From an uncultured Alphaproteobacteria bacterium (lineage in GTDB: Bacteria > Pseudomonadota > Alphaproteobacteria > RF32 > CAG-239), in the NCBI GenBank assembly GCA_944391615.1, contig CALXUE010000006.1:17665-81664 (forward strand): a stretch of 64,000 nt of DNA, written 5' to 3'. Made by a program: the position numbers and the translations under genes. Of this stretch, positions 26,771-61,360 are shown in pieces (the stretch's first letter is position 1; each line of letters begins with the position of its first letter). The notes under the pieces were generated by a model. The model ran no database searches, was not told where the DNA came from, and worked only from the letters and a program-made list of their open reading frames with translations.

Positions 26771-26806
26771 ACGAGTCGTGGAGATAAGTTGAAAGGTGTT
26801 TCGAAA

Positions 26807-27646
26807 ATGAAAAAACAAACTTTTTTGTTTTCAGCATGCAATGCTTTATTATGGCTTTTTAGTTATAATAATGTATATGCTGATGTTTCAAATTTCAAGA
26901 CAACAGACAAGGATTTTTTGACCAACACACAACACACACAGTTTTTGTCTGATGCCTCCGGCTTATCTCCCGATAAGTTTATCAAAGTTGCACAAGTTTG
27001 CTGGATTATGGACACCGGTGAATGTTTTGGTGTTAACTTTATTTCCGCTGACAGAGATTTGAATAATCCCTCTAACCCTGAAGATTATGTTCCCAAAGGG
27101 CCGGCTGATTGTATTGAAGAAGGTTATACCGTTACCAACTGTCCCAATGGCTATAAGGGCAACAAAGAATGTTTGTATGCCAAAGGGTATTATGCCGAAT
27201 GTATTGAAGACTGCCCCAGTAATTATAAACAATGTGAAGAGCCTTATCATGGTGTGGGGCAAGTTTGCGGCGATGGTTATTATGCCAGTTGTCAATGCGA
27301 CTACTGTGACGGATATTCCTACAAAAAAGAAGATATTCCCGATGGCTATGTGGCAGATGGTGAGCCTTGTAATTCATGCAATGGTCCAAGGTATAAAATC
27401 AAAGTCAACCCTTGTGAGGGTTATCAAGACTGCGGCTCGATGGGCGGCAAGGTCGGGGCAACATCCTGCTTGTCGGGCACGAATATGATGTATAGCGAAT
27501 GCAAACCTTGCCCGAGCTTAGGGGAATATGACACCTGTCCGCCGTGTTCGGTCTGTTCTTATGAAGAATGTTCCAACAAATATTATGTGACGGGTTGTGC
27601 TGCGGGCTGTCAAGATTACTGCGACTACTGCGCTTTTGAACAATAA
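26807..27646 (+). CDS. Cassette 1 gene A: secreted, extremely Cys-rich repeat protein of unknown family
   Basis: The start is at MKKQTF, downstream of the conserved promoter. It has a signal peptide (..NNVYA/DV) and more than 40 Cys in repeated CPxxY / GYYAxC / CxxC spacing. Paralogs lie at 34843-35682, 39803-40681 and 63826 to beyond 64000. Confidence 0.75.
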   Translation: MKKQTFLFSACNALLWLFSYNNVYADVSNFKTTDKDFLTNTQHTQFLSDASGLSPDKFIKVAQVCWIMDTGECFGVNFISADRDLNNPSNPEDYVPKGPADCIEEGYTVTNCPNGYKGNKECLYAKGYYAECIEDCPSNYKQCEEPYHGVGQVCGDGYYASCQCDYCDGYSYKKEDIPDGYVADGEPCNSCNGPRYKIKVNPCEGYQDCGSMGGKVGATSCLSGTNMMYSECKPCPSLGEYDTCPPCSVCSYEECSNKYYVTGCAAGCQDYCDYCAFEQ

Positions 27647-27691: not shown

Positions 27692-28489
27692 ATGAGAAAG
27701 TTTTTATTATATTCATCGGCTTTGGCGTTAGGTTTGAGCGGGGTGGCTGAGGCGGCCTGCATCCAAACACCAACGTGTTCATCTTTGGGCTACACCTCAA
27801 CTTCATCTTGCACCGGCGGAACCAAATGCCCCTTTGGCAATTACTGGAACTGCACCGCAGCTGACTTAAATAATAAGATTACGGAACTTGAAACCCAAAT
27901 CACTGAACTCAAAAAAGAAATGGTAATGTCTAACTGCCAAGTTGGTGATGTTTTGTATTCGGATATGACGATTAATCCTGATTATGTTAGTGGCAAAACA
28001 CCAATCGGCGTGGTATTTGATTGTCGAAAAAAATTAGCGATAGGGTTGGAGCAATCTGACGAAGAGTGGTCAATTACCGATGATTTTGATGTTCCTGGGG
28101 TTGAAAATATTACAGATACAACGAAGGTTTTGCAAGATATGGATGGAAAAAAGAATACGAGTACAATATTAGCCTATTGTAAAACAAAAGGGAAGCGTTG
28201 TCCGGCGTTTGAGTATGTGAATAGTTATAAAACAGAAGGAACTCAAGCAGGGGATTGGTACTTACCATCTATGGGAGAATTATATGCGATATATGGTAAT
28301 ATGGGTGTATTGAATGTTACGTTAATAAAAATAGTGGCAACAAGGCTTGTTGCAAGTTACTATTGGTCTTCTTCCGAGTATTCAAGCACCGACGCGTGGA
28401 ATTTGAGGTTCAGTAGCGGTAACGTGAACTACAACGATAAGTACCACAGTGCCGATTTCGGTTACGTTCGCCCAGTCCTAGCTTTTTAG
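27692..28489 (+). CDS. Cassette 1 gene B: secreted protein with a Cys-motif N-module, a coiled coil and a DUF1566/Fib_succ_major-like C-terminal domain
   Basis: It has an RBS GGAGGAG and a signal peptide (GVAEA/AC). The N-module is AACIQTPTCSSLGYTSTSSCTGGTKCPFGNYWNC, followed by a KITELETQITELKK heptad. The C-terminus PIGVVFD...AGDWYLPSMGELYAIYGN...YYWSSSEYSSTDAWNLRFSSGNV...YVRPVLAF resembles the Lcl C-terminal/DUF1566 pattern. Confidence 0.75.
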   Translation: MRKFLLYSSALALGLSGVAEAACIQTPTCSSLGYTSTSSCTGGTKCPFGNYWNCTAADLNNKITELETQITELKKEMVMSNCQVGDVLYSDMTINPDYVSGKTPIGVVFDCRKKLAIGLEQSDEEWSITDDFDVPGVENITDTTKVLQDMDGKKNTSTILAYCKTKGKRCPAFEYVNSYKTEGTQAGDWYLPSMGELYAIYGNMGVLNVTLIKIVATRLVASYYWSSSEYSSTDAWNLRFSSGNVNYNDKYHSADFGYVRPVLAF

Positions 28490-33981: not shown

Positions 33982-34797
33982 CTAAAAAGCTAGGACTGGA
34001 CGAACGTACTCGCTAAGGTAGTTCTTATAGTAGTAGTCCACGTATCCGTCACTGAACCTCAAATTCCACGCGAAGTCGCTTGAATACTCGGAAGAAGACC
34101 AATAGTAATTTGCACCAAGCCTTGTTGCCGCTATTTTCCCTAACGCAACATTTAACACACTCATATTACCATATATCGCATATAATTCTCCCATAGATGG
34201 TAAGTACCAATCTCCTGCTTTTGTTCCTTCTGTCTTATAGCTATTCACATACTCAAACGCCAGACAATGCTTCCCTTTTGTTTTACAATAAGCCAATACC
34301 GTACTTGTATTCTTTTTCCCATCCAAGTCTGCTATCGCTAATGTACGGTCTGTTATATTATCAACCCCTGGAACATCAAAATAATCTGGATATGACCAAT
34401 GTTGTTGAGATTGCTCCAACCCTATAGCCAATTTTCCACTATGGTCAAACACCACGCCGATTGGCGTTTTTGACACAACATAATTTGAATTGCACGTCAT
34501 ATCCGAATACAATATATCTCCGACCAAACAGTTGGCGGTTGAAACTTCTTTTTTGAGTTCAGTGATTTGGGTTTCAAGTTCCGTAATCTTATTCGTTTGT
34601 TCTGTAATCTTATCATTTAAATCGCTTGCGGTGCAGTTCCAGTAATTTCCGAAGGGGCATTTTGTTCCACCGGTGCAAGATGAGGTTGAGGTATAACCCA
34701 AGCTTGAACAACTCGGGGTCTGAATACAAGCCGCAAGTACAGTGTCGCTAAAACCAAACACTGCCAAAGCCGATGAATATAATAAAAACTTTCTCAT
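33982..34797 (-). CDS. Cassette 2 gene B (paralog of 27692-28489, about 80% aa identity)
   Basis: It has the same N-module (AACIQTPSCSSLGYTSTSSCTGGTKCPFGNYWNC), coiled coil and DUF1566-like C-terminus ending YVRPVLAF. RBS GGAGGAG. Confidence 0.75.
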   Translation of the reverse strand: MRKFLLYSSALAVFGFSDTVLAACIQTPSCSSLGYTSTSSCTGGTKCPFGNYWNCTASDLNDKITEQTNKITELETQITELKKEVSTANCLVGDILYSDMTCNSNYVVSKTPIGVVFDHSGKLAIGLEQSQQHWSYPDYFDVPGVDNITDRTLAIADLDGKKNTSTVLAYCKTKGKHCLAFEYVNSYKTEGTKAGDWYLPSMGELYAIYGNMSVLNVALGKIAATRLGANYYWSSSEYSSDFAWNLRFSDGYVDYYYKNYLSEYVRPVLAF

Positions 34798-34842: not shown

Positions 34843-35682
34843 TTACTGTTCAAAAGCGCAGTAGTCGCAATAATCGGCACAACCTGTGGCGCAACCCGTC
34901 ACATAATATTTGTTGGAACATTCTTCATAAGAACAGACCGAACACGGCGGGCAGGTGTCATATTCCCCTAAACTCGGGCAAGGCTTGCATGCGCTATACA
35001 TCATATTCGTGCCCGATAAGCACGAGGTTGCTCCGACCTTGCCGCCCATCGAGCCGCAATCTTGATACCCCTCACAAGGGTTAGGCTTAATTTTATACAC
35101 CTCGCCGTTGCAGGATACGCAAGGCGCCCCGTCCGCCACATAGCCATCGGGAATATCTTCTTTTTTGTAGGAATAGCCGTCGCAGTAGTCGCATTGACAA
35201 CTGGCGTAATAACCATCGCCGCATTCTTGCCCCACACCATGATAAGGCTCTTCACATTGCTTATAATTACTGGGACAGTCTTCAATACATTCGGCATAAT
35301 ACCCTTTGGCATACAAACATTCTTTGTTGCCCTTATAGCCATTGGGACAGGTAGTAATGGTATAACCTTCTTCAATACAATCAGTCGGCCCTTTGGGAAC
35401 ATAATCTTCAGGGTTAGATGGATTATTCAAATCTCTGTCAGCGGAAATAAAGTTAACGCCGAAACATTCACCGGTGTCCATAATCCAGCAAACTTGCGCA
35501 ACTTTGATAAACTTATCGGGAGATAAGCCGGAGGCATCAGACAAAAACTGTGTGTGTTGTGTGTTGGTCAAAAAATCCTTGTCTGTTGTCTTGAAATTTG
35601 AAACATCAGCATATACATTATTATAACTAAAAAGCCATAATAAAGCATTGCATGCTGAAAACAAAAAAGTTCTATTTTTCAT
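34843..35682 (-). CDS. Cassette 2 gene A (paralog of 26807-27646, about 95% aa identity)
   Basis: It is collinear with 26807-27646 and nearly identical, including the signal peptide and Cys spacing. It lies downstream of the inverted copy of the promoter block. Confidence 0.75.
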   Translation of the reverse strand: MKNRTFLFSACNALLWLFSYNNVYADVSNFKTTDKDFLTNTQHTQFLSDASGLSPDKFIKVAQVCWIMDTGECFGVNFISADRDLNNPSNPEDYVPKGPTDCIEEGYTITTCPNGYKGNKECLYAKGYYAECIEDCPSNYKQCEEPYHGVGQECGDGYYASCQCDYCDGYSYKKEDIPDGYVADGAPCVSCNGEVYKIKPNPCEGYQDCGSMGGKVGATSCLSGTNMMYSACKPCPSLGEYDTCPPCSVCSYEECSNKYYVTGCATGCADYCDYCAFEQ

Positions 35683-35718
35683 TTTCGAAACACCTTTCAA
35701 CTTATCTCCACGACTCGC

Positions 35719-39802: not shown

Positions 39803-40681
39803 ATGAGTAAGCGGAAGTTTATCTTGTTGGCTTCGTTGTCTGTATGCGCGTTTGTTGCGGAGACGGCGCAAGCCGATATTTCTTCTTCAATGAATTATAT
39901 ATTCAAAGATGTTACACTTTTCAACACACTTCACACACATTTATCTTTGAATGGAGCTTTATCTCCACAACAAGTTTCAAAAAATCAAAAATCTTTGGTT
40001 AAGGTAGCCCAAGTCTGCTGGATTATGGACACGGGAGATTGCGCCGGTTTGGACTTTGTGAGTTCGGATATTAATGGTTCGGGCAATAAACCACCGAGCG
40101 AATATGACAAGAAAGGCCCTGAAGATTGTATCAAAGAGGGTTACACCATCACCAACTGTCCGGATGGGCAAAAAGGTGACGGAGAATGTATGTATGCCAA
40201 TGGCTACTATGCCAAATGTATTCCCGACTGCCCGTCATCTTATACCACCTGCACGTCGCCTTATAAAGGGGTGGGGCAAGTTTGTGGGGATGGCTTGTAT
40301 GCGGAATGTTGTCAAGACACTTGTCCGGCAGATTACAAATACACCTTAGGTTCAATTCCTGACGGATATGAGGCGGTTGGAGAACCTTGTGTGCAATGCA
40401 ACGGTAATAACACCACGGCAGTCAAAAAATACAGAGTGAAAGAAAAAGACTGTTCCGGATTTTTGGATTGCGGGACTTTAGGCTGTGAAACAGGGGCAAC
40501 GACTTGTCAATCAGGAAGCGTGGTTAAGTGTTCAAAATGCAAACCTTGCCCGAATTTGGGCTCAGAAAGTGAATGTCCACCATGCACAGTCTGCAGCTTT
40601 GAGGAATGTTCAAACTTATACATCGTCAGCGGTTGCAAAACAAATTGTACCGATTATTGCAACTACTGCGCTTCTGAATAA
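39803..40681 (+). CDS. Cassette 3 gene A (divergent Cys-rich paralog)
   Basis: It has a signal peptide (AETAQA/D), the conserved KVAQVCWIMDTGDC block and the same Cys-repeat architecture, ending CNYCASE. Confidence 0.7.
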   Translation: MSKRKFILLASLSVCAFVAETAQADISSSMNYIFKDVTLFNTLHTHLSLNGALSPQQVSKNQKSLVKVAQVCWIMDTGDCAGLDFVSSDINGSGNKPPSEYDKKGPEDCIKEGYTITNCPDGQKGDGECMYANGYYAKCIPDCPSSYTTCTSPYKGVGQVCGDGLYAECCQDTCPADYKYTLGSIPDGYEAVGEPCVQCNGNNTTAVKKYRVKEKDCSGFLDCGTLGCETGATTCQSGSVVKCSKCKPCPNLGSESECPPCTVCSFEECSNLYIVSGCKTNCTDYCNYCASE

Positions 40682-40722: not shown

Positions 40723-42003
40723 ATGAAAAAATTTTTATTATATTCAACCGCATTCGTAGTTTTGAGCGGGACGGCAAATGCAGCCTGTATCCAAACCCCG
40801 AGTTGTGCCAGTTTGGGATATGACAGTAACTCAGCCTGTGAAAATGGTCTAAAATGTCCGTGGGGCAATGCTTGGTATTGCAAAGTCGGAGAATTGGAGG
40901 AAGCAGTCAACAATGCCGAAAAAGCAAAAACTTGTATCCCCGGAGCCGTTTTTAACTCCGATCGTAGTTGTACCGAAAAACAAGAACTTGGCAAAATTCC
41001 GATTGGTGTTGTTGTCTATGCTGACGGCAAAGGCCACGGCCAAGCCATGGCTTTAGAAAAAATAGATATTGTAGCATTAAACAATTATTTAAAAACTGTT
41101 AAATACACAACTTTTTCTAAGTATCCAAATAAATATGCAGTAGAGTATCGTTACACTTATGCTAGACACTCAAGTGGAGATGAAGAATATGTAAAATGGC
41201 CTCAAGAAAAATGTATATCAACAGATGATATATATGTTAAAGGATTGAAAGAGTTTTCTAATTTAGAAGAAGCATCGCTTGAATTTGATAGTAAAAACAT
41301 TACAGCTCAAATACAACAATCACTAAACACAAATAATGCTAAGATTCAACAATATTTTAATACGGCGTCTGCATTAAATTCTATTGTGAATGAATCTAAA
41401 ATTATGGAGTGTAGTCGTTCTAATGTAGTAGGCTATCCATGTTATCTTTACGAGGTTAGTAATAAATCGGAATACTATTGGTATTCAGGTGATGCATCCA
41501 CATCTTTGCTTAAAACCATACAAAAAATAAAAGCTTATAAAACAACAGGAACCTCAGCTGGAGATTGGAATATGCCTGCCCCTGGAATATTTAATTCTAT
41601 AAAAGTAAATTTTGAAAAGATTAAAGAAACTTATGCCTTACTTAATAAAAATTTTAACTATAATCAAATGGTTACAATGGGAATGTATATCAAAAATGCA
41701 GGAGAAAAGACAAATAAAAAATGTACGTTTATGGATGCTAAATTTACGAGTAATGATGGTGATATAGATAAAAATTATCAAAGTTATCAATATGATTCAA
41801 GTTATTCAAGTCCATCAGACACGTACTCTCAGTATTACTATTATTATCTAATACCAACAACAGATTTCAATACTAAATTACCATCTGTTTCAGCGGAAAT
41901 AACATCATATCCAAAATACATAGCATTTTCAAATTCTGCAACGTATGGTACAGCAACCACATCATCAGGAGGAAAGCAAATCTATCCTGTAATTGACTTT
42001 TAG
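40723..42003 (+). CDS. Cassette 3 gene B (divergent, extended paralog with an N/Y/S-rich low-complexity C-terminal region)
   Basis: The N-module AACIQTPSCASLGYDSNSACENGLKCPWGNAWYC and the block PIGVVVY...GTSAGDWNMPAPGIFNSI align to the other B genes. The C-terminus is replaced by a Tyr/Asn/Ser-rich sequence. Confidence 0.65.
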   Translation: MKKFLLYSTAFVVLSGTANAACIQTPSCASLGYDSNSACENGLKCPWGNAWYCKVGELEEAVNNAEKAKTCIPGAVFNSDRSCTEKQELGKIPIGVVVYADGKGHGQAMALEKIDIVALNNYLKTVKYTTFSKYPNKYAVEYRYTYARHSSGDEEYVKWPQEKCISTDDIYVKGLKEFSNLEEASLEFDSKNITAQIQQSLNTNNAKIQQYFNTASALNSIVNESKIMECSRSNVVGYPCYLYEVSNKSEYYWYSGDASTSLLKTIQKIKAYKTTGTSAGDWNMPAPGIFNSIKVNFEKIKETYALLNKNFNYNQMVTMGMYIKNAGEKTNKKCTFMDAKFTSNDGDIDKNYQSYQYDSSYSSPSDTYSQYYYYYLIPTTDFNTKLPSVSAEITSYPKYIAFSNSATYGTATTSSGGKQIYPVIDF

Positions 42004-42064: not shown

Positions 42065-44272
42065 TTATTCTTCATCCTCATCGGCATCGTCGCCGTTATC
42101 TTCTTCAGGATTATAGTCAATACCGAGTTTGGCTAACATATCTTCATTAATATCTTCACGTTGCGCCACAATCCAATCCGGCACGCAAGGCGCAGGCGGT
42201 AAAGCGGCCAAAGCTTTCATTTTCTTATCCAAATACCAACGTGGAGAATCAGCCATAATCGGCCTGTCAATGGAACCTTGCATCAACACCACTTGCTTAA
42301 GCATAGGCAAGCTTAAAAGTTGCGTAGTCGAAATAACTGACGTTCCCTGCAATTGGTAAGACACATTTTTAGAAAATGGATTCGTACCTTTACCCAATCC
42401 CTCTGTTTTTGAAAAAGATGTTGTCTGCACCGTCTTGTTACCAATCATTTTAGAGAAACGTTGCGCAGTCACCTCGTTGTTTTGAGAAAGAATAACTTTA
42501 CAAGCCGTGGTAGAAATCACGGTTTCCAAATCATCCTTACCATACTTTCCGGAAATTTGCCCCAAGTCTTGCCCGATAAGCAAATACGACACTTTTTGAC
42601 CACGACCGACGGCCGGTCCGTCAATAATAGCGCGAAGCTTAGGCATTTGCGGAAACTCATCCAGCACAAACAAAGCAGGGAACGGCCCCATCACGCCATC
42701 AGACTTGTTGTGGAATTTTGGCGGATTCGCAATCAAATAAGATGACATCAATTCAATAAACGTTCCCGAAATAATGTTCAATGCGCGCGCATCAACCTGG
42801 TTAACGGACAAATAAACCGAAATCGGCTTCCACTCACCAGTCACAGGGTCTTTCATTCCGCGCAAATCCTTAAATTGCAAATCAGAAAAACTCGTGCGCG
42901 AAACCACAGCCGCGTTTTTGAAAATACCAATACCGGCCAAACCGGTAGACAACACGGAACCACGCTCTTTATCCGGCATGGCGCTGAGCTGGCTGAGTTC
43001 AACAATACACCGTTGTGAGTAACCAAACTTTCTGGCTTCGGTAATGGCTTCTTCCAACATATTGCGCATCGGGTCAGCCATAGCGGCCATCTGGTCGCCC
43101 TCATCCAAGCGGCGCTTAATTTCTTCCGATTGTTTGATTTGAGCTTCGGTAATCCATTCCAAAATCATGGCCAAGCAGGCTTCATGCCCAATCCATTTCT
43201 CCGGCAACAAAGCCCATGAGCCAATGGGCAAATAGTTATCAATGGTGAGTCTGCCGGCTCTCAGATCTTGAATAGCTCTGGCCGCCATTGGATCACGCAT
43301 CTCAAGATAATAGCTTTCCAACACACGCTTATCTTCATCATCCATTTTACCTTCATAAATACGCCCGATAAAATAGTCATTAGCGCGTGCTTTTTCACAT
43401 TTAAAAGACACAAAGTGAATAAATCCTGTCAAAGCGGCACGACCTGTTGTTGACCAGTGCGGGTCTGCTCCCCCCTTAGGCTCTTCCACCAAAATATTGC
43501 ACATAGAGTCAATATACATATCTCGGTCAGGTCCCGGAGCAGGCAATGCATTAGGCGAAAGCGGGTTCCAACTCGGATAATAAATACCTTCAGCCGGATT
43601 GTCTTCCGCACCCCAGTTAATCACAAATACAGGGCCGTCTTTGGCACGAGCTCCGGTTGTGGAATAGCACAACTCAGGCTTTGGGTCGTTTACGATAATA
43701 CTCAGGCCGTGTGAGTTAAAAATAGTCGGAATCACCACGCCGGCAGTTTTACCGGTACCCGGAGGCGCACAGCAAAGAGTTGCCAGAGTTTCTTTAAGCA
43801 TAAGCATTTTGCCGTTAAACTTTCCGACCACTTGACAAAAGCCGTCAAAACCAAGCAACGGCATTTTTTTAATATCTTTTTCAGTGGCCAATCTTGCCGC
43901 ACCATGAATATTAGATTGAAAACGATAAGGATTTGTCAAAAAACCAATCGTCAATCCCACCGGAAAGCTTATAAACGGCAACACCGGCACCCACAAACTG
44001 ACCGAAAAAGGTCCGTTATAATGAGTCAGTTGTTGAAACCAACTCCAATAACGAGAAGTCAAATAAGAAGGGTCGTTAAAAACAGCCTGCAAAAAGCGAT
44101 AAGCAACATCCATGCTTGTTTTGGAAATTCCGGCCCCGATAAGATAACCGATAGGCAGCGAAAAAACAGCCAAAAAAATCGTCAACACCAAAGTGACAAT
44201 AGCGGAAATAACCATCCACTGCACCGCATTGTCATATTCTTCCCATTCTTCACCGCGTTCTTCAGACATCAA
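42065..44272 (-). CDS. Type IV secretion coupling protein (VirD4/TraG/DotL family ATPase)
   Basis: It has N-terminal transmembrane helices and the T4CP signature HGAARLATEKDI (GSARWA-like). Walker A is CCAPPGTGKTAGVVIPT and Walker B/DEF is LFVLDEFPQMPKL...IGQDLGQI. The C-terminal tail is acidic (DNGDDADEDEE). Confidence 0.8.
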   Translation of the reverse strand: MMSEERGEEWEEYDNAVQWMVISAIVTLVLTIFLAVFSLPIGYLIGAGISKTSMDVAYRFLQAVFNDPSYLTSRYWSWFQQLTHYNGPFSVSLWVPVLPFISFPVGLTIGFLTNPYRFQSNIHGAARLATEKDIKKMPLLGFDGFCQVVGKFNGKMLMLKETLATLCCAPPGTGKTAGVVIPTIFNSHGLSIIVNDPKPELCYSTTGARAKDGPVFVINWGAEDNPAEGIYYPSWNPLSPNALPAPGPDRDMYIDSMCNILVEEPKGGADPHWSTTGRAALTGFIHFVSFKCEKARANDYFIGRIYEGKMDDEDKRVLESYYLEMRDPMAARAIQDLRAGRLTIDNYLPIGSWALLPEKWIGHEACLAMILEWITEAQIKQSEEIKRRLDEGDQMAAMADPMRNMLEEAITEARKFGYSQRCIVELSQLSAMPDKERGSVLSTGLAGIGIFKNAAVVSRTSFSDLQFKDLRGMKDPVTGEWKPISVYLSVNQVDARALNIISGTFIELMSSYLIANPPKFHNKSDGVMGPFPALFVLDEFPQMPKLRAIIDGPAVGRGQKVSYLLIGQDLGQISGKYGKDDLETVISTTACKVILSQNNEVTAQRFSKMIGNKTVQTTSFSKTEGLGKGTNPFSKNVSYQLQGTSVISTTQLLSLPMLKQVVLMQGSIDRPIMADSPRWYLDKKMKALAALPPAPCVPDWIVAQREDINEDMLAKLGIDYNPEEDNGDDADEDEE

Positions 44273-44290: not shown

Positions 44291-45655
44291 TTAAGCAAGG
44301 TTACGTACAATTTTTTTAATTTTTTCAAAGTCCTCTCTGCCGATAGGTTCCACAGCATCCGGCAAAGTTTTAGCAAAGAGTTTAATTTCTTTAGGCGTGC
44401 CTCTATCAATACGTGTCACATTCACCTTCAAATCGTTCCACACATCAAACATATCTTCAGCATTAATGATATTACCGATAGAAACCACCACAAAGGCCCC
44501 AACATTAAACCTCATACCTTGTTCATCAAGGGTTTCTGAAAGAACCCTGCGAGCAATATCAACTTTTCGCACCGGAGAAATTCTGTGGCTGCTTTCCGAA
44601 AACCACAAAGGCTCTTCATCATTAAATCTTTCTTCATCAGCCAACCAGTCACCTGGCTCTTTGTCAATCAAGCACAAAACAAGTTGATTTTTAGCCACAC
44701 AAACAAAGTCAATCAAATTTCCCTTAAACATAACGCCGTTAATCGTTTCAAAACCGTGTTGTCTAATAATATCAAACACAGAACTTCCACTGCCTTTCAT
44801 AGCGGCTGACTGAGTACTTTTGGATGTTGCCGGCAAATTCTGATTATCACGGTTTTTATTGTTGCGAGGTCTGTTTTCTCTAGACTCTCGAGGAGAAATA
44901 TCGCGATTATTATCTTTTTTCTGGGGTAAATTTTTCTTAAAATTATTATCAGTCTTTCTCTCAACCGGAGCTTGAGGTTTTGTTTCTTCTTCAGACTTTG
45001 AAAAATCAAAGTCATCAATATTAAAGTCAAAATCATCATCTTTGCTGTCCATGTCAAACAAAGAATGACTAAATTGCTTTGTTTCCTGAGGCTTGTTTTC
45101 AACAACGGGAATACTTTTTTGTGCGGGTATAATGCTGGGCGTAACACTAGGTGTAACTGTTGCGGAAGAAGCAAGAGTTGAGCGATTCTTGGTTGCAATC
45201 AAGCTGGTCGCATTTTCAGGCTCGGGGCGTTCGTCAAGGGGTAAGCGCAAACTTCTGGGACGCACTTCTTTATAAGATTTTTTCTTTTTAATATTTTTCA
45301 TACCGGCAGAAGTCGTAATGATTTTAACCGGCCTAAAGAAAAATTGCTTAAATATCTTCCACGGATAGGAAGCCGCTTTTACAAACAATTTTTCCCATTT
45401 AACCATGCTAAGTGCAGCCCAACCGCACAACCATAAAGGAATAAAGGTTAAGATAATCAACACAAAGGCCCATTCTTTAGGTGTATTAATAACCCAACCG
45501 GAAAGCCACAAATTCCAAGCATGACTCCAGTGTGAGGATTGAAACATGTCAAAATGCCAGTTTCTGAGCATAATAACACGAACCCCTTCAATGAAGAATA
45601 AACTCCAGAAGAGGCCGACGCATAAAATTCGTGTTAAAATGACCAACGGTTTCAA
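44291..45655 (-). CDS. Hypothetical membrane protein upstream of the T4CP gene (Trp-rich N-terminal membrane module paralogous to 45716-46201)
   Basis: The N-terminal hydrophobic helices carry the IPLWLCGW motif, followed by a basic low-complexity linker and a C-terminal globular domain. It lies 18 bp upstream of the T4CP gene. Confidence 0.45.
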   Translation of the reverse strand: MKPLVILTRILCVGLFWSLFFIEGVRVIMLRNWHFDMFQSSHWSHAWNLWLSGWVINTPKEWAFVLIILTFIPLWLCGWAALSMVKWEKLFVKAASYPWKIFKQFFFRPVKIITTSAGMKNIKKKKSYKEVRPRSLRLPLDERPEPENATSLIATKNRSTLASSATVTPSVTPSIIPAQKSIPVVENKPQETKQFSHSLFDMDSKDDDFDFNIDDFDFSKSEEETKPQAPVERKTDNNFKKNLPQKKDNNRDISPRESRENRPRNNKNRDNQNLPATSKSTQSAAMKGSGSSVFDIIRQHGFETINGVMFKGNLIDFVCVAKNQLVLCLIDKEPGDWLADEERFNDEEPLWFSESSHRISPVRKVDIARRVLSETLDEQGMRFNVGAFVVVSIGNIINAEDMFDVWNDLKVNVTRIDRGTPKEIKLFAKTLPDAVEPIGREDFEKIKKIVRNLA

Positions 45656-45715
45656 AGCATCAAACCCTTAATTAAAATATGACATGTAAGATAGCACAAC
45701 AAAGTTAATAATAGA

Positions 45716-46201
45716 TTATTTTTTTGCATCAGAAATTTTCTGATTAACGGCATCGCGAATTTGTGCCGTAAGTTTGGAATTATCCAAATCTTTTTCAATT
45801 TTTTTCAGTTCATCTTTAATTTCATCTTCTGCAGATTCTGTTTTAACTGAAGTTCCCAAATTTTTCAAGACAATTCTCGCAGTATTTTGTTCATATTCGG
45901 CAATTTTTTGGGCCGAATACCAATCAAAAGGTTTGGCCAAAAGTGCCATAATTTTAATTTTGAGAGCTTTTCTCCATCCCCAAATCCAAATTGGCAAAAT
46001 TGCAATAAGGATAAGAACAAAAACATAATCGGCAAACGAGCGAATAACGCCGCCTTCATTCCAAAAGGTGCTCAAGAGTTGCCAGTCTTGAAGCCGAAAC
46101 AAGCTAAAATTCCAAATTCCTTGTAAAATAAAATCAAACACGGAAAATAACAAAACCGACCACACAACGCCGACAAAACAAAATTTAATAAATTTTTTCA
46201 T
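45716..46201 (-). CDS. Hypothetical small membrane protein (paralogous N-module; LPIWIWGW)
   Basis: The start is at MKKFIKF. It has the same W...W..G.VI...FVLI..I.P.W..GW pattern as 44291-45655 and a charged coiled-coil C-terminus. Confidence 0.45.
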   Translation of the reverse strand: MKKFIKFCFVGVVWSVLLFSVFDFILQGIWNFSLFRLQDWQLLSTFWNEGGVIRSFADYVFVLILIAILPIWIWGWRKALKIKIMALLAKPFDWYSAQKIAEYEQNTARIVLKNLGTSVKTESAEDEIKDELKKIEKDLDNSKLTAQIRDAVNQKISDAKK

Positions 46202-46226
46202 GAGCGCTCCCAACAGCAACAAAAAA

Positions 46227-47672
46227 TTATCTGCCGCCTTCATTCAGTCTGTTAAAGTTGTTTTGGGCAACAACCGACTGACGATGAGTCTGATGCTTTT
46301 GTACATAATCGTTAGATAAGCGTGATTTTAATTTGTTAAGTTTGACTCGTCTAACGTTATTTTGCGCACGCGCATTGTCATTTGCAAGTTGCTCCTGCAT
46401 ATAAACATCAAAGGCCTTTGTATTGGCTTTTTCTTGCTGAAGATCATTAAGCAAAGCCTCGTGCATGGATTGTTTGGATCTTGCGCTCATATCGGTTCCG
46501 TCGCGAATTTGCAACAGATTTTGAACATATTTGTTTTCTTTATATTGGCCTTTTGACTTGCGTCCCAGCCATTTCTTTTTGCTATAGCCGACAAAGTTTC
46601 CTTTAACAACATTTTTGCGCATAACATCCAAACCTTTGTCAACATTATCTTTGAGCATAGCACTGGTATTGTAGGCGCTTTTGCCGCTTTTAACCGCATT
46701 TTCAATACTGCGCGCAAACAGAAGATAACCCTCATTTTTAAACTTAGCCATGGCTTTGTCCATGTCTTTAATCTCAGTATCATCAGGATTGCGCATTTTT
46801 GCATCCATAAACATAAGCTGAGCATAGTTATTGGCAAACTGCGCTGCGGCCACACGATAAGAATTATAGGCTTCTTGGCATTTTGCAATATTGTTTGTAT
46901 CTAAAAATTGATTAAGCTTTTTGGGGTCAGCGTTTTGAAGACGAGCTTTTTGTTGAGGCGTTAATCCCTCATAATTTCCTTCACGAATTTTTTGTGCTTG
47001 CTCAATAAGACTTTTATCGTTGTCATACAGAGCTTCTTTAGCGTTAATATCTTCAACAGCCTTCTTTTCGGCATCGTTCATTTTTTTATAAGTGTCATAA
47101 GACTGCAAAGCTTTTTCTGCTGGTTTTTGAGCATCTTGCAAATGTTGCTTGTATTTTTTATCATAATATCCGGACTTAGTCTTTTTGCAACACCATTTCC
47201 AAATTCCGTTTAAGCCGGCGATAAGCCAGTCATTGTACATATAGTCAATAATGTCGCCGGCCTTGAAGATATTATCTTCTTTATCATCATAGTCTGCTCC
47301 GCCGATTTCATCTGGCTTACGTGTGATTGAACCTGTCTTCTTCTCTTCGGGAGTATTTTGTTCTTCGGGAACTTTGACCTGCTCGTTAACGGTTGTTTCT
47401 TTATTTTTTTCGTTAACGGTTGTTTCCTTAACAGCCTCGTTAACGGTTGTTTCCTTAACAGCCTCATTAACGGTTGTCTCTTTAACTTCTTCATTGACTT
47501 CAAGGGTTTCGTCATCGTTTTCATTTACATTGACAGTATCTTGATTTTGAGTTTCTTGAGGATTAGCGTCATTAACTTCCAGTGTGTCCTGATTCGCGTT
47601 ATCTTGCGTCTCATTTTCGCTTACTTCAAAGGTATCATTATCTTTTTTCTCGTCGACCATATGTTTCACCAT
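46227..47672 (-). CDS. Hypothetical protein with an acidic N-terminal repeat region ((V/A)KETTVNE x4) and a Lys-rich helical C-terminus
   Basis: The ORF holds 27-bp tandem DNA repeats at about 47385-47480, an N-terminus rich in E/N/T/D and a K/Q/N-rich C-terminus. No recognised family. Confidence 0.45.
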   Translation of the reverse strand: MVKHMVDEKKDNDTFEVSENETQDNANQDTLEVNDANPQETQNQDTVNVNENDDETLEVNEEVKETTVNEAVKETTVNEAVKETTVNEKNKETTVNEQVKVPEEQNTPEEKKTGSITRKPDEIGGADYDDKEDNIFKAGDIIDYMYNDWLIAGLNGIWKWCCKKTKSGYYDKKYKQHLQDAQKPAEKALQSYDTYKKMNDAEKKAVEDINAKEALYDNDKSLIEQAQKIREGNYEGLTPQQKARLQNADPKKLNQFLDTNNIAKCQEAYNSYRVAAAQFANNYAQLMFMDAKMRNPDDTEIKDMDKAMAKFKNEGYLLFARSIENAVKSGKSAYNTSAMLKDNVDKGLDVMRKNVVKGNFVGYSKKKWLGRKSKGQYKENKYVQNLLQIRDGTDMSARSKQSMHEALLNDLQQEKANTKAFDVYMQEQLANDNARAQNNVRRVKLNKLKSRLSNDYVQKHQTHRQSVVAQNNFNRLNEGGR

Positions 47673-47745
47673 ACATTCATTTGTTTAATCTAACTTGATA
47701 GTAACACAAAAAACAAATTTTGTCCATTATTTTTGTTGAATACAA

Positions 47746-48657
47746 TTAAGCTTTTAGCTTTTTCAAAAAAGCCCCGATAATACGGTTCATCCGAATACCG
47801 TCTTGAGGTTTAACCTTAATAAGCCCAAAGAAACGCGGCTTTATTTTATCCACTTGAATAGGGGCAAAAACAGCCGGATTGTTTGTCAAAACCTTATAAG
47901 CCCCGTCAGCATCCTTGCGAGCGGTTTTAAAATAGTTTTTCACCAGCCTGTCAGCATCAATCGGAAATTTCTTTTTATTGATAGCCTCGATATATTTGTT
48001 CATCAAATTAATACGGCGCTGATGCTGCAAATATATTTCGCGTTCCAAGCGCTTTTTTTCCCGCTTAAGCTTTCGTTCCTTATAAGCAATTTCGCGGCCT
48101 TCCATTTCAATCAACGATTCAACGTAGGAGATAATGGCAAATTGCAAAGTATCATCTTGAAGTTTTTCTGCAAAATCCAGAAGCTGCTCATCAGTAGATT
48201 GCAAAGAAATTTGCCCCACAATATCAGGATAAGCCTTAATCAAAATGTCCCAACCTTTTTCAAAATCTTCGGCAATAATTTTGCCTCTGCTGGGTTTATA
48301 ATGAGGCGTCAAATCCATCGGCTGTAATCTAAACTTACGAAAAGACAAATTCTTGTCCTTTGCAATCATGTTAAGAGCATCTTCAAAATTTCGATAAGCT
48401 TTGAACAGAGCTTTTTCAGACTTGTCAAGAGCATCTAATTCAGGGTCCTCTTCCTCAATGTCGCTGTTGTCTTGCGTAAAATTTGCGACCTGTATGTTTT
48501 CTTGAGGCACCTCGACATCGTGAACAACATCGGTCTTTTTTTGAGAAGAGAGCGTATCATCAATATCAACATCTTCCAGTTGGTTATTGATAAAGTCATT
48601 CAAGAGCTTTTCAAACTCACTGTCATCATTTTCAGCCATGAAGCAATTATCTCCCAA
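47746..48657 (-). CDS. Hypothetical acidic protein
   Basis: The N-terminus is very acidic (ENDDSEFEKLLNDF..DVDIDD) and no domain is recognised. It lies in the same minus-strand gene string. Confidence 0.4.
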   Translation of the reverse strand: MGDNCFMAENDDSEFEKLLNDFINNQLEDVDIDDTLSSQKKTDVVHDVEVPQENIQVANFTQDNSDIEEEDPELDALDKSEKALFKAYRNFEDALNMIAKDKNLSFRKFRLQPMDLTPHYKPSRGKIIAEDFEKGWDILIKAYPDIVGQISLQSTDEQLLDFAEKLQDDTLQFAIISYVESLIEMEGREIAYKERKLKREKKRLEREIYLQHQRRINLMNKYIEAINKKKFPIDADRLVKNYFKTARKDADGAYKVLTNNPAVFAPIQVDKIKPRFFGLIKVKPQDGIRMNRIIGAFLKKLKA

Positions 48658-57467: not shown

Positions 57468-57977
57468 TTATTTGCTCGTGTTATCACTTAGCTCGAGAGA
57501 GGAGCCAGCGATATCATCGCCCCATTCTTCACGTAATTTGTTAAGTTTGGCATCAATTCTTTCGATACGTTTCTGAGCCGAAATTTTATAAAAATAAGCA
57601 TAGAGATTAGGGAGTTCGGAATACACCAAAACGCCAATAGCGGCACATCCGAGCATAACAATCAGCATAAAGATGTTATCGGCAATATTGTTAGTTAAGC
57701 CAAGAGAAAATTTAGAAAGTAAGCCGAAGAGATAAAAGAACACCCCCGAAATATTAAAACAGCCGATAATCAGTTGCTTATCATAATTTTGCCGATCGGT
57801 ATACATAATAGTAATGGTAGGCAGCAAGCCGAAGATGAGCAACAACACAATCGGAAAAGAAATAAAAATCAAGAAGATAAGCAAAGCAAAAAGCAAAAAT
57901 TTCTGCAAAAAGGATAAGTTTTTGTAAGCTTTAGCAAATTGAGGACCTTTATTAATTTTAGAATTTTTCTGATTCAT
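57468..57977 (-). CDS. Hypothetical membrane protein
   Basis: The start is at MNQKNSK and overlaps the upstream stop (ATGA-type coupling). It has four hydrophobic segments. Confidence 0.4.
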   Translation of the reverse strand: MNQKNSKINKGPQFAKAYKNLSFLQKFLLFALLIFLIFISFPIVLLLIFGLLPTITIMYTDRQNYDKQLIIGCFNISGVFFYLFGLLSKFSLGLTNNIADNIFMLIVMLGCAAIGVLVYSELPNLYAYFYKISAQKRIERIDAKLNKLREEWGDDIAGSSLELSDNTSK

Positions 57978-60034
57978 TATTGTAACACCCATTTAATAAG
58001 GTTATAAGCAAAAGAGACAATCATGGCCAACACCGCAAAAATAGTAGCTAATTTAAGAGCGGCAGCTTTAGCAGATTCTTCAAGTTTAGCAGAGTTTCCG
58101 GAAATTTTGCTTTTTTCCAAATTAAGCAAATTAAATTCATTTAAGACGGAGGCAAAACCATTGCGATCTTTTTCCAAAGTCTGTTCATTTTCTAATAGAT
58201 TGTAAATTTCATAAATTTTACCGGCCGGATAAGTTTTAAGCAACTCTTTTTCCAAATATCGCTGATATTTTTTGTTATGATAAATTTGGATCATCGGTTT
58301 TGCAAAATTAGCCAACCAGTGAGCAAGATTAACGAGCTTAGTCGGTCCGAACTTAGTCTGCATCATAGCATAGAGTTGCAAGATAGAGCTAGCTTTAACT
58401 TCATTACGATTGGAGTTTAAGCCCGAAATAAATTCATCAATTTTTTTGCCCATTTTGCAACGCAAAAAGGCAACAATCATGCGGTCATAAGGCTGAGCCA
58501 TAATATTAGTTTGGTCAAATGCGGCATCCAAAGCTTTTAAGACCTGAGGAGCACTAGAAACAAATTCTTTTTCGAACAAAGGACTAATGCAAGGAATATC
58601 TGCATCCAAGTCATAAATAATGCGTTCGATTCCATAGCCGATTTCTTGGCGCATAATATACACCCTAAATTCCGTAAAGTTCGAAGGCGTTCGCAAATAC
58701 TCCTGATCTTGATACCAAAGCTTAATCAAGTCGGAAGAAAAAATTTCAATAAATTCTTTAATAGATTTTTTAGCCTTAACGGCGCTAAACACGGCTTTAG
58801 CAACACCATCGGGAAAGAAAGTTATATTTTTGTATCGAATAGGAAACAGCTTATCAATCAAGATAGAAATTCTGGCGATGGTGAGGTCCTTGTTTCCGGC
58901 AGAAGCTTGTTCTTGTTTAACGATAGATTCGATTTGCGCGGTTAGTTTTTCGTTTTCGAGACCGTTTTTAGCCCAATCGGCAATTTTCCCCTGCATAATA
59001 AGGCTATAAGCTTCATCGGGGTAGAGTTGCATGGTATAAACCACATCATGAGGCATATACACTTTTTCACCGTTAATATTAAGGGCGCGTTTGGGGCGTT
59101 CTAGGGAAGCAGGCGAGTTAAGGTTGACCTGTTTTCCATCAAAAACGTTTGCCACTTGAGTATGCCCCCAACGAAAAGAAGGCACATCTTGCAGCAAGCC
59201 TCTAAAGACGGTAGAAAACTCGGTAGGAATTTTTTCAAGAGCATTAAAAAAAGAAAAACTTCCTTTTTTAATTTTTTGGCGCAAGATTTCAGGTCCCGAC
59301 AAATTAATAGCCAAATCATGACCGAGGAAGAGACACAAGGCCGTAACGGCGGCAGAATACACGTCATTTTTATCATTTCCGTTACCTCTGGCATCTTTGT
59401 CGGCATAAATACTTTCAATAGTTTCAAAAACAGGGGGCTGATGAAACGCCGGAAAAGAGGCAGCACAGTCTCCGAGGATAATTTCACTTTTGTTTTCATC
59501 ACTAAAATAGAGATTATCGGTACGGATGGCACGATGTGTGATATGCATACTTTTCATCACATCAATAAGTTCCAAGATATTGAGCAAAGTTTGCTTAAAT
59601 TTATCATAATTATTTTTGAAGTTGATGGTACACACGCCGTTTTCAAAAACCTTACCGCCCAAAGGCATAGCATAAATCAAAGCCATTTTGTGCGTTTTAT
59701 CTTGAGGAAAGAAGATAGTGCCAAAATCGAGCAGTTTCATAAGAGCAGGATGTTCAATAGACTTCAGATAAGGCAAAACAGAAAGTCTGGGACAAGTATC
59801 ATTAGAGCAAATCAGAGCAAAAAGTTTGCGAGCGGAATCAATTCTGTCAGAGACACCAAAAGCGATAGCATTATTATTATTGAGGTGAGGCAAAGGTTTA
59901 GAAAAATCAATTTCATATCTTTCTTTAAACAACACTTTAGTGTCGGATTTTTTTTCCGTATCCGTAGCGGCGGCCTTACTTTCAACTTCTGTTGCAGTGT
60001 CGGGCACATTCAAATCAATATTTTCGTCCGTCAT
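57977..60034 (-). CDS. Protein-kinase-fold protein with degenerate catalytic motifs (probable pseudokinase or atypical kinase) plus a long C-terminal helical region
   Basis: KERYEI (kinase N-lobe-like), HITHRAIRTDNLYF (in the HRDLKPxN position, with the Asp replaced by Ala), ILGDCA (in the DFG position) and DVYSAAVTALCLFLG (subdomain IX-like) are present. Confidence 0.5.
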   Translation of the reverse strand: MTDENIDLNVPDTATEVESKAAATDTEKKSDTKVLFKERYEIDFSKPLPHLNNNNAIAFGVSDRIDSARKLFALICSNDTCPRLSVLPYLKSIEHPALMKLLDFGTIFFPQDKTHKMALIYAMPLGGKVFENGVCTINFKNNYDKFKQTLLNILELIDVMKSMHITHRAIRTDNLYFSDENKSEIILGDCAASFPAFHQPPVFETIESIYADKDARGNGNDKNDVYSAAVTALCLFLGHDLAINLSGPEILRQKIKKGSFSFFNALEKIPTEFSTVFRGLLQDVPSFRWGHTQVANVFDGKQVNLNSPASLERPKRALNINGEKVYMPHDVVYTMQLYPDEAYSLIMQGKIADWAKNGLENEKLTAQIESIVKQEQASAGNKDLTIARISILIDKLFPIRYKNITFFPDGVAKAVFSAVKAKKSIKEFIEIFSSDLIKLWYQDQEYLRTPSNFTEFRVYIMRQEIGYGIERIIYDLDADIPCISPLFEKEFVSSAPQVLKALDAAFDQTNIMAQPYDRMIVAFLRCKMGKKIDEFISGLNSNRNEVKASSILQLYAMMQTKFGPTKLVNLAHWLANFAKPMIQIYHNKKYQRYLEKELLKTYPAGKIYEIYNLLENEQTLEKDRNGFASVLNEFNLLNLEKSKISGNSAKLEESAKAAALKLATIFAVLAMIVSFAYNLIKWVLQ

Positions 60035-60157: not shown

Positions 60158-61360
60158 ATGACAGAGGCAGAGAAGATGACAAAATCAAAACATGCCATAC
60201 CCACATCACTAGAAGATCTGGAAGAAATATCCCAGCACCCCACACCGATTAAGGCAGATTTATCGGTTTTGGAGCACGCGCAAAATTATCACATATCGCT
60301 GGATGGGCTGGAGAGTATTTCAACCCCAAGCGCAGACTTGAGTGTGCAGCAGCCAAAATCAAAGCCTGCCGTATCACCCAAGGCCGTAAAAGCAGATATG
60401 CCCGATCAACAAGAGCAGACAAGCCCCATGGCCGCTTCATCCAATTCCAAAGAGGCGTTAACCCCCAATATCACGGGGCACCTAAATTTGGAGCGCGTTG
60501 ATTTACCGTTAAGAGAAGTGATTCGCAAAATATTTTGGCGCTCGTCGCGCCCGATTGTTGTTATCAGCGATGACAAAATCGTTTATGTCAATCCGTCATT
60601 TTTAGAGTTAGTGGGCAAAGAAACGGAATATGACGTACTGGAAAAAAATTTTTTTGAGTTTGTCTCGCCCGAATATTGGGACAAGCTTTCAACCGGCATA
60701 GGCGATGTTTTAACCAAGAATCAAGCCATACAAATAGGCATAAAGGGCAAACTCGGCAAAGTAATCCGCCTCAATTTTGAAGGTATATATATAACGGATG
60801 AGCACACATTCAGCTTTATATTAATAGGAATGTTGGCCGAAAAGAAGAGCTATGCGGCCGGATTATATAATGAAAAGACAGGGCTTCCGAGCTATGAGTT
60901 GCTGCAAGACCGCATCAAGATGTCTATTGATGCCCGCAGCATAGACAGGTTAAGTTTGGGTCAAAACATCAGTGCACTTGCCTGCATACACATAGAGGCG
61001 GCAGATTTTATGGATGATTTCAAATCCATGTCCATTTTGAAGCGCATATTTGAGCGTCTTCTAAGCAGTCTCAACAAGCATTATACCTTAGCGCACGGGG
61101 AAGATGACAAGGAGTTTTGGATATATATACCAACCATAAGCACTATGGAAAAATTATCAACCGAAATGCAGTATATTAAAGACTTGTTTGAAACGCCGGT
61201 TGAAGAAAATTACAGTCCCACCCGATTCAAAAGCTACATGGGGGTGAGTACTTATCCCGAGCCGGCAACATCAGCCAAAAAGCTGGTGGAAGAAGCCAAG
61301 CTGGCTAATCAAAAAGCCCTTCAAAACGATGACGGAAAGATTGTATATTTCGGAGCTTAA
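60158..61360 (+). CDS. PAS-domain-containing protein with a degenerate GGDEF-like C-terminus (signalling protein)
   Basis: It has a PAS-like block (IVVISDDKIVYVNPSFLELVGKETEYDVLEKNFFEFVSP). The C-terminus has no intact GGDEF or EAL motif. Confidence 0.4.
   Translation: MTEAEKMTKSKHAIPTSLEDLEEISQHPTPIKADLSVLEHAQNYHISLDGLESISTPSADLSVQQPKSKPAVSPKAVKADMPDQQEQTSPMAASSNSKEALTPNITGHLNLERVDLPLREVIRKIFWRSSRPIVVISDDKIVYVNPSFLELVGKETEYDVLEKNFFEFVSPEYWDKLSTGIGDVLTKNQAIQIGIKGKLGKVIRLNFEGIYITDEHTFSFILIGMLAEKKSYAAGLYNEKTGLPSYELLQDRIKMSIDARSIDRLSLGQNISALACIHIEAADFMDDFKSMSILKRIFERLLSSLNKHYTLAHGEDDKEFWIYIPTISTMEKLSTEMQYIKDLFETPVEENYSPTRFKSYMGVSTYPEPATSAKKLVEEAKLANQKALQNDDGKIVYFGA

Follow-up and report, generated by a model that had tools for sequence, protein, structure and literature searches.

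A 64,000-nt stretch of DNA from an uncultured Alphaproteobacteria bacterium (GenBank assembly GCA_944391615.1, contig CALXUE010000006.1, positions 17,665 to 81,664 of the forward strand), which we refer to as the window, contains four open reading frames (ORFs) for related and predicted secreted proteins, B1 to B4, each located 3' of a gene for a cysteine-rich protein, A1 to A4; B1, B2, and B4 were found by a motif search. The explanation that we consider probably correct is that these A/B pairs are copies, scattered over the chromosome, of a secreted binding protein in two parts that belongs to uncultured Alphaproteobacteria of the human gut, and that the B genes differ in how they vary: B1 and B2 would be diversified by a diversity-generating retroelement (DGR) acting on a variable repeat (VR) at the 3' end of each gene, B3, the gene in focus here, would have no VR and be diversified by the swapping of alleles, and B4 would be of a static type.

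The evidence for DGR-type repeats begins with the comparison of B1 and B2. When the two genes are read codon by codon, many synonymous changes are seen in the 5' two-thirds, after which the DNA becomes near-identical over the last ~250 nt. The exceptions in this last part are clustered changes at positions 1 and 2 of NAY codons (for example AGC/GAC, AAC/TAC, AAC/GAC, GAT/TAT, and CAC/TAC), and the mismatches within 28364-28486, the candidate VR of B1, number 11, 5, and 3 at codon positions 1, 2, and 3, respectively. The synonymous divergence (dS) between the two genes is 0.13 in the VR as opposed to 0.8-1.07 upstream, and the ratio of non-synonymous to synonymous divergence (dN/dS) is 1.7 in the VR as opposed to 0.04-0.4 elsewhere. 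In 47 homologues, an invariant scaffold, YWSSSE.S...AW.L.F..G.V....K.....VRPVLAF, is interleaved with hypervariable positions that can take 9-16 states and that lie in aa 217-258, inside the Lcl_C domain. The scaffold is identical in DNA in paralogues and in another species that otherwise share ~50-77% identity; in the B genes of that species (metagenome-assembled genome, or MAG, BRZ_CI__bin98) the DNA elsewhere is ~77% identical.

Both VRs end in a 23-nt motif, CGTTCG(C/T)CCAGTCCTAGCTTTTT, that resembles the initiation of mutagenic homing (IMH) site of DGRs. It is found in the window only at these two places (0 occurrences expected by chance), and it also terminates the VRs and the template repeats (TRs) of related DGRs. 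Moreover, the columns that vary among four VRs of the window type (those of B1, B2, L006, and L007) coincide with columns in which the two nearest TRs, neither of them cognate, have adenine: variation is seen in 21 of 34 A columns, against 8 of 72 non-A columns (Fisher p = 1.3e-7). In the conspecific strains L040 and L041, B2 is a mosaic gene with a different VR between flanks that are 99-100% identical, and the scaffolds of the conspecific B2 VRs differ at third positions by C/T switches, as if the alleles had been copied from different TR units, which would be expected to produce such switches. Taken together, these sequence features make it very likely that B1 and B2 carry VRs of the DGR type.

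Relatives evidently have complete and active DGRs that target this protein family. To find them, the predicted TR, with AAY at the variable codons, was written as a pattern and scanned against metagenome contigs, and this returned 13 human-gut loci, all with adenine-rich repeats. The gene order at L011 and L029-31 is A-like, B-like (Lcl_C), bAvd (PF22296), TR, and reverse transcriptase (RT; PF00078). At L011 the B-like ORF ends in ...VRPVLAF and is accompanied by bAvd (PF22296, E 8e-17) and TR units, and L042 shows the same A/B-bAvd-TR-RT order from the 3' end of B onwards. Each of the loci recovered as RT homologues has both bAvd and RT, with A and B also present upstream in L029-31, and the RTs of the relatives' cassettes contain the motifs YVDDF and IGNLTSQ. 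VR and TR differ at 20 adenine and 0 non-adenine positions in L009, at 17 and 0 in L042, and at 16 and 1 in L029. With L029-31 pooled, 37 of the 40 differences fall on A, leaving three in the 3' IMH/IMH* end, where divergence is expected; in L029 the TR copy of the motif differs at its extreme end (GGCTTCTTCATAA against GGCTTTTTAA), as IMH* does. Because three samples with an identical TR and RT hold three different VRs, the relatives' DGR is evidently active in vivo.

By analogy, we propose that an RT acting with bAvd would copy an adenine-rich TR into cDNA, misincorporating at adenines, and that the cDNA would replace the last ~120 nt of the target gene (the VR), guided by the conserved 3' motif. 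Some ~20 surface positions would be randomised in this way, with the scaffold WSSSE/AW/F/G/K/VRPVLAF retained. B1 and B2 would be remote targets, their cognate TR and RT lying outside the 64-kb window; we predict the TR to read GAGAAYTCAAAYAAYAAYGCGTGGAAYTTGAANTTCAAYAAYGGNAAYGTGAAYAAYAAYAAYAAG...TACGTTCGCCCAGTCCTAGC. It is probable, though not proven, that this genome has a cognate TR and RT and that they are active. In the proposed protein, A would be a disulfide-rich stalk or partner, and B would consist of a signal peptide, a cysteine-rich module named for its LGY motif, a coiled coil, and a C-type-lectin-like head. We infer surface display, ligand binding, and oligomerisation, and negative frequency-dependent selection as the driver of the diversity.

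The head is best defined in B1 and B2, which score 36.6 and 36.5 bits against Pfam Lcl_C (PF07603, DUF1566), above the gathering score of 34.9 bits. The earlier note on this DNA, made from the sequence alone, had assigned a clear DUF1566-like fold to B1, B2, and B4; this is borne out for the first two, but B4, at 20.5 bits, is sub-threshold. In the same Pfam scan B3 had no hit at all, Lcl_C included. The AlphaFold2 model of B1 has a predicted local distance difference test (pLDDT) value above 90 over amino acids 81-265, and Foldseek matches it to 4eps (E 2e-8) and to 8q4e, the C-terminal domain of Lcl (E 1.6e-4). Searches of the window revealed at the 3' end of B4 no similarity to the VR/TR scaffold, no TR-like DNA, and no intact IMH-like motif. 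B4 thus represents a third state, in which the domain is kept and TR-like DNA is absent, and it is apparently static.

The N-terminal part of the B proteins behaves in the opposite way to the VR. All four have a signal peptide followed by the motif AACIQTP(S/T)C(S/A)SLGY..S.C..G.KCP(F/W)GN.W(N/Y)C, and among 47 family members the mean column entropy of this LGY module is the family's lowest, 0.41 bits, compared with 1.74 for the C-terminal VR. Between B1 and B2, dN/dS in the module is 0.04 despite a dS of 1.07, and within the B3 family its mean pairwise identity is 0.89; the module is under strong purifying selection. A constant module had been described before at roughly 45 amino acids, and it is indeed present in all four proteins as their least variable part, but its length is ~33. 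A heptad coiled coil, likewise ascribed to all four, is clear in B1, B2, and B4 (3-4 heptads with I or L at positions a and d; the length difference between B1 and B2 is exactly 7 amino acids, or one heptad), but in B3 it amounts to two weak heptads at best, and the majority of B3-type homologues carry a Gly-rich linker at this place. The coil probably oligomerises. On inspection, the signal peptide of B1 ends in ...GVAEA and that of B3 in ...GTANA, each followed by AC, neither of which matches the lipobox pattern [LVI][ASTVI][GAS]C; the B proteins are therefore without a lipobox, as position -3 is E or N.

B3 differs from its paralogues in how its head is built. In an hhalign comparison with the B1 family, residues 1-304 of B3 align with residues 1-211 of B1 (probability 100%, E 3e-44), with two large insertions in B3 at ~aa 114-177 and 197-266. 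The blocks in common are PIGVV...A.ALE, LEEAS.DFDSK/D.DGKKNT, and YKT.GT.AGDW.LP..G, followed by a helix, and on this alignment the core of the B3 domain can be called homologous to the B1 family with certainty. The last ~120 amino acids have no B1 counterpart; in B1 and B2 the same stretch is the VR. A terminal motif is nevertheless retained (YPVIDF as compared with RPVLAF). This C-terminal region consists of Y, S, T, and N to 45% overall and to 56% in aa 345-385, and it had previously been taken for a low-complexity tail replacing the C-terminus. That description does not hold, since homology to B1 extends to residue 304 and the last 120 amino acids are predicted by AlphaFold2 to form beta strands (pLDDT ~65-85). 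We suggest that the VR-bearing terminal subdomain was swapped for an unrelated, beta-rich segment of 120 amino acids, in addition to the gain of the two insertions. No IMH-like motif within 3 mismatches was found in B3, and no repeat of its 3' region occurs in the window; of the marks of a DGR target, namely VR scaffold, IMH, and substitutions at fixed positions, B3 has none.

A different mode of variation became apparent when conspecific contigs were compared with the window. The strains L024 and L027 are 97-100% identical to it across virD4 and 4 kb beyond, and in L024 the identity extends through A3 and into B3 as far as codon ~110. Between ~41050 and 41990, however, identity is ~30-55% and the DNA is unalignable in both; in L024 it drops from 100% to ~30% at ~41040-41050. 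The breakpoints are sharp, one lying inside the conserved PIGVV...ALE block and the other at the stop codon. In amino acid sequence, B3 is 98-99% identical to P0002/P0003 over aa 1-113 and 27-28% identical over aa 114-426, and there are at least three allele classes at the locus. Across the B3 family, conserved blocks (identity 0.8-0.9) alternate with hypervariable, indel-rich insertions (0.34-0.42), the scaffold blocks within aa 114-426 being LEEAS.DFDSK, YKTTGT.AGDW.PAPG.FNSIK, and YGT...YPVI.F.

For these divergent alleles dN/dS is not computable, as the sequences are saturated and unalignable. The one close pair of B3 alleles (98% amino acid identity) differs by 10 non-synonymous and 4 synonymous changes, a dN/dS of 0.67 and so not above 1, and its first 142 codons are free of differences of either kind. 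These observations indicate that B3 is a conserved paralogue without a VR that is diversified by allelic replacement through recombination, not by retrohoming. Homologous recombination would replace the whole of 41050-41990, using the N-module and the first lectin block as the 5' anchor and the stop codon, the terminator, and virD4 as the 3' anchor, and the resulting allele diversity is consistent with balancing or frequency-dependent selection. We also note a peculiarity of the 98%-identical allele in L039: three of the four synonymous differences fall in three consecutive codons (41575-41583, B3 codons 285-287), where CCT GCC CCT becomes CCA GCA CCA. All three are third positions changed to A, inside the conserved PAP of GDW.MPAPG, which would be odd for independent mutations.

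Several results weigh against this overall explanation. The 64-kb window contains no RT (by a [YF]xDD motif scan and tblastn), no bAvd (tblastn), and no TR (blastn), nor is there a third copy of any B 3' end in it (blastn). The cognate TR was recovered neither from genome or metagenome collections nor via five RT-bearing loci, and the locus sets found through RT homology (L028, L029-38, L042/43, and L044) are all from related species, with none that fits the B1/B2 scaffold. All TRs found differ from B1 and B2 at ~8-10 non-adenine positions, including the nearest one from the guessed-pattern scan (L013, ~10 non-A differences). A scan of genome contigs for the VR scaffold gave no TR in the related MAG BRZ_CI__bin98 and returned only two more VR-bearing B genes, both from that MAG, which is a different species. 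Of the 32 variable VR columns, 8 coincide with bases other than A in the non-cognate TRs. Three samples share exactly the same B1 protein; this says little about rate because they carry essentially the same strain. For B3, the whole-protein AlphaFold2 model is of only moderate confidence (pLDDT 62), and Foldseek gave no meaningful match to it in the PDB (best E 0.13).

The B1 and B2 VRs could, then, be relics of a lost DGR, any present variation arising by recombination among paralogues only. The absence of a DGR core from the window, the failure to recover one for this species, and the identity of the B1 VR in the three samples all suit this possibility, as do the conspecific B2 alleles, which are mosaic along the entire gene and not just in the VR, and the persistence of VR-less family members (B3 and B4). 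But the IMH-like motif and the scaffold are perfectly preserved and dS is low in the VR relative to the upstream sequence, which argues for recent templated homogenisation; the conspecific B2 VRs have different scaffolds, with third-position switches of the kind that different TR units predict; and identity among samples of essentially one strain is uninformative on rate. We consider loss of the DGR unlikely.

Somewhat less likely again is that, in a family of adhesins or receptor-binding proteins, ordinary diversifying selection acted on point mutations and no retroelement took part. The earlier note had favoured diversifying selection, and in one respect it was right: a conserved module is joined to a variable head, and dN/dS is not uniformly below 1, exceeding 1 in the C-terminal stretch of B1 and B2 and lying far below 1 in the N-module. 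The lack of an RT or TR in the window and the stability of the B1 VR across three samples would also be compatible with selection alone. What it missed is the mechanism. The changes are limited to ~120 nt and to positions 1 and 2 of NAY codons, with near-zero synonymous divergence around them; the scaffold is identical in the DNA of otherwise diverged paralogues and species; the variable columns coincide with TR adenines; and complete DGRs of relatives target the same family.

For B3 itself, two further alternatives were considered and rejected. The first, which we judge very improbable, is that B3 is the DGR target of a different TR, with the Tyr/Ser/Asn/Asp-rich aa 345-385 as its VR. Residues with NAY/NNY codons do abound in this stretch (Y 24%, S 17%, D 15%), and the region is hypervariable in the family. 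However, it has no IMH-like motif, no GC-rich 3' end, and no repeat in the window; variation in the family is indel-rich and spread over 300 amino acids; conspecific alleles are unalignable in DNA instead of being identical at non-A sites; the close allele pair differs at scattered sites by mixed base changes; and hhalign shows no VR-type scaffold after residue 304. The second, that B3 is a pseudogene in decay or a B gene joined to unrelated sequence by faulty assembly, as the lack of a Pfam domain and the compositionally biased C-terminus might have hinted and as the earlier note had kept in view, is scarcely credible and in its pseudogene form refuted, given an uninterrupted 426-codon ORF with its own terminator, an identical 426-aa protein on at least 10 independently assembled contigs from several samples, 24 full-length homologues (400-450 aa, 34-49% identity) that keep the internal blocks and the terminal YPVI.F, and the pattern of 10 non-synonymous to 4 synonymous changes with none in the first 142 codons. 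B3 is thus best regarded as an intact, allele-swapped paralogue.

The relatives' cassettes have a feature that is absent from the window, namely that between bAvd and RT lie 2-8 TR-like, adenine-rich units in tandem array. Such arrays are present at L010 (8607-9850), L011 (3050-4040), L014, L016 (628-2700, 8 units), L013 (50/376/621), L028, and L042. Units are 114-159 nt long with an A fraction of 0.27-0.37 and a period of ~260-330 bp, and every unit comes with a hairpin upstream of it (AAAGGACTGCCGACAGCC...GGCAGT) and with a 3' homing motif; lengths and scaffolds differ between units. The adjacent VR fits one particular unit with 0-4 non-A mismatches, and in the near-identical arrays of L010, L011, and L014 the VRs fit different units. 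The DGR surveys compared here make no mention of tandem TR arrays with unit switching. The sister strains L009 and L017 were considered as a further case of the use of different units; this was dropped, the L017 VR and its only detected TR being of different length. Tentatively, one can imagine a split protein of A stalk and B head served by an array of up to eight alternative TRs that re-templates several dispersed A/B loci, with B1 and B2, whose VRs differ by 6 nt, as remote targets of different units, and with VR-less paralogues such as B3 swapping alleles in parallel; we put this forward as a possibility that we do not ourselves favour.

Neither Pfam nor NCBIfam has a match for the A proteins of the window or for ten long A homologues, and the family is small (166 representatives at 50% identity among 1.84 billion proteins). 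A-like genes also lie upstream of B-like genes in L006, L011, and L029-31. A hidden Markov model of the B family matches, over its lectin-domain part, ~19 of 150 listed A-family representatives, which are therefore taken to be A-B fusions, with an A-like Cys-rich region followed by an Lcl_C head. The B N-module motif, C..LGY....C....KCP.......C, is present in 17 A-family proteins, often as the last part of an A that stands alone or, in fusions, where A meets B. One fusion, in MAG BRZ_CI__bin98 (L007, 4981-6480, minus strand), joins the Cys-rich end of A directly to the lectin head (…ECSNLYIITADYCDCKIGDILYSD…) and lacks the signal peptide, LGY module, and coil of B; in other fusions the module is retained, and further fusions include P0298, P0318, and P0354. 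These ~19 fusion proteins show A and B to be parts of one unit, and they favour a role for the constant LGY module as a putative attachment or junction element, much as the earlier note had it. A variation on the theme is seen in L006, where a B protein of 461 amino acids has two tandem lectin heads, with a VR only in the last.

Between A1 and A2, dN/dS is ~0.12. Near-identical strains show 13 changes within 250 bp of A1 (26889-27138) and 5 within 44 bp of A3 (40378-40421), and these clusters are the only differences in 2.8-4.7 kb between otherwise identical strains. The pattern points to micro-conversion between A paralogues, or to A being under selection as well.

DUF1566 is a recognised class of DGR target domain and the commonest one in human microbiomes (PMC4159848, PMC5758913). 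DGR variable proteins with DUF1566/Fib_succ_major domains form the 'CLec2' class, category d of Wu et al. 2018, of which Legionella LdtA is the exemplar, and remote DGR targets are known, with several in Treponema (PMC5758913). B1 and B2 resemble this class in having a C-terminal DUF1566/Lcl_C domain with the VR as the last ~120 nt, in the type of scaffold (YWSS...AW...F..G......K....VRPV), in the AAY-rich TR, bAvd, and RT of the relatives' cassettes, in the proposed use of remote targets, and in a predicted extracellular, Cys-rich context. They depart from it in several ways: the B proteins are without a lipobox, whereas LdtA is a lipoprotein; a 33-aa LGY Cys module and a heptad coil precede the head; A, an obligatory Cys-rich partner, is encoded either separately from B or as a fusion with it; each genome has several paralogous A/B pairs, including the VR-less B3 and B4; in relatives, TR units form arrays of 2-8; and for the window no cognate TR or RT was found.

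Two structural matches invite comparison. Lcl of Legionella pneumophila has the same C-terminal domain family (8q4e is a Foldseek match at 29% identity), and in Lcl as in B, where it is predicted, an oligomerising rod precedes the head. The rod of B is, however, a short heptad coil instead of collagen-like repeats, of which none were seen in the B sequences. Membership of Lcl proper was rejected: the Lcl equivalog model, NCBIfam NF046116, gives 20.1 and 18.6 bits against a cut-off of 500, over the C-terminal domain only, so B1 and B2 are not Lcl orthologues. Lcl is not known to be a DGR target. The best match of the B1 model (TM 0.57 over the query) is BACOVA_04982 of Bacteroides ovatus (4eps), a fimbrial-type protein with a DUF1566-like C-terminus, which Ye 2014 took as a structural proxy for DUF1566 DGR targets (PMC4159848); it differs from B1 in sequence (19% identity), in its N-terminal part, which is a fimbrial domain and not an LGY module with coil, and in its Bacteroidota origin.

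Mechanistically, B1 and B2 would be like Mtd of Bordetella phage BPP-1 and TvpA of Treponema denticola, in which ~12-20 exposed positions of a lectin-type C-terminus are randomised via TR adenines. The lectin subclass differs (Mtd and FGE-sulfatase types versus DUF1566), there is no detectable sequence similarity, and Mtd forms the tip of a phage tail fibre. For B3 the closer parallel is the replacement of surface-antigen alleles, as when variable pilin or adhesin alleles or cassettes of phage receptor-binding proteins are exchanged by homologous recombination. Like such loci, B3 has a 5' module and flanks that are conserved and, in conspecific strains, C-terminal alleles at a single locus that cannot be aligned with one another, but the window showed no silent cassette, invertase, or shufflon.

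The features of the window are collected in Table 1. The A/B pairs are dispersed among housekeeping genes (for polyprenyl synthase, RNase D, AspRS, PpiC, SecA, an RluD-type synthase, a sigma factor, and CorA), and related contigs are annotated as uncultured Alphaproteobacteria from the human gut. No homologue of ligA or clpB was detected in the window by tblastn.

Table 1. Positions, strands, and descriptions of the A and B genes of the window and of features within them.
Feature	Positions	Strand	Description
B1	27692-28489	+	265 aa; signal peptide, LGY module, 3-heptad coil, Lcl_C/DUF1566 domain
B2	33982-34797	-	271 aa; B1 paralogue with one extra heptad
B3 (gene in focus)	40723-42003	+	426 aa; signal peptide, Cys module, short helix, Lcl_C-like domain
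B4	62901-63791	-	296 aa; same N-module and coil, divergent Lcl_C-like domain
A1, Cys-rich partner	26804-27646	+	upstream of B1
A2, Cys-rich partner	34843-35685	-	upstream of B2
A3, secreted Cys-rich partner, 292 aa	39803-40681	+	immediately upstream of B3
A4, 3' end only, cut by window end	63835-63999	-	upstream of B4
B1 VR of candidate DGR type, 123 nt	28364-28486	+	IMH-like 3' motif CGTTCGCCCAGTCCTAGCTTTTT at 28465-28487
B2 VR of candidate DGR type, 117 nt, 6 nt shorter than that of B1	33985-34101	-	IMH-like motif at 33984-34006
B3 Cys-rich 'LGY' module, aa 22-53: ACIQTPSCASLGYDSNSACENGLKCPWGNAWYC	40786-40881	+	invariant Cys, Gly, and Pro columns
B3 first conserved Lcl_C-like block, aa 71-113, ...KIPIGVVVYADGKGHGQAMALE	40933-41061	+	proposed 5' recombination anchor; family identity 0.87
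B3 allele-replaced part, aa 114-426	41062-42000	+	hypervariable insertions alternating with conserved scaffold blocks

B3 is convergent with a gene for a VirD4/TraG coupling protein (virD4, 42065-44272). Adjoining virD4 on the minus strand (44291-48657) are four ORFs of 454, 175, 481, and 303 amino acids with no Pfam match, partly acidic or repeat-rich (with VNEAVKETT repeats in 46227-47672). This block is kept at 97-100% in conspecific strains, with local dips at ~46180, 47330-47430, and 45330, and its ORFs may be genes associated with a type IV secretion system or effector genes. Elsewhere, a 685-aa ORF on the minus strand (57977-60034) has a weak, sub-threshold match to protein kinases (E 7e-4) and adjoins a gene for a PAS-domain protein (60158-61360).

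DGR targets with a DUF1566 domain were already known, and in this respect B1 and B2 would be mechanistically like Mtd, TvpA, and LdtA. Features that appear to be new are the LGY module with its coil, a Cys-rich partner that is either split off or fused, and the presence in one genome of VR-bearing, VR-less allele-swapping, and static paralogues. A vague assignment, adhesins under diversifying selection, can now be replaced by a specific and testable mechanism, with two of the four genes very likely carrying DGR-type VRs, and this would place uncultured human-gut Alphaproteobacteria among the users of DGRs. The locus offers a three-way comparison, in one family and one genome, of members that would be diversified by a retroelement (B1 and B2), diversified by recombination (B3), and apparently static (B4), and the uncharacterised Cys-rich A protein and the conserved junction module, which gene fusions tie to the same machine, provide a way into the question of how cells mount heads that a DGR diversifies. 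Confirmation of the TR arrays of relatives would widen the known coding scope of DGRs and would bear on their re-programming for directed evolution.

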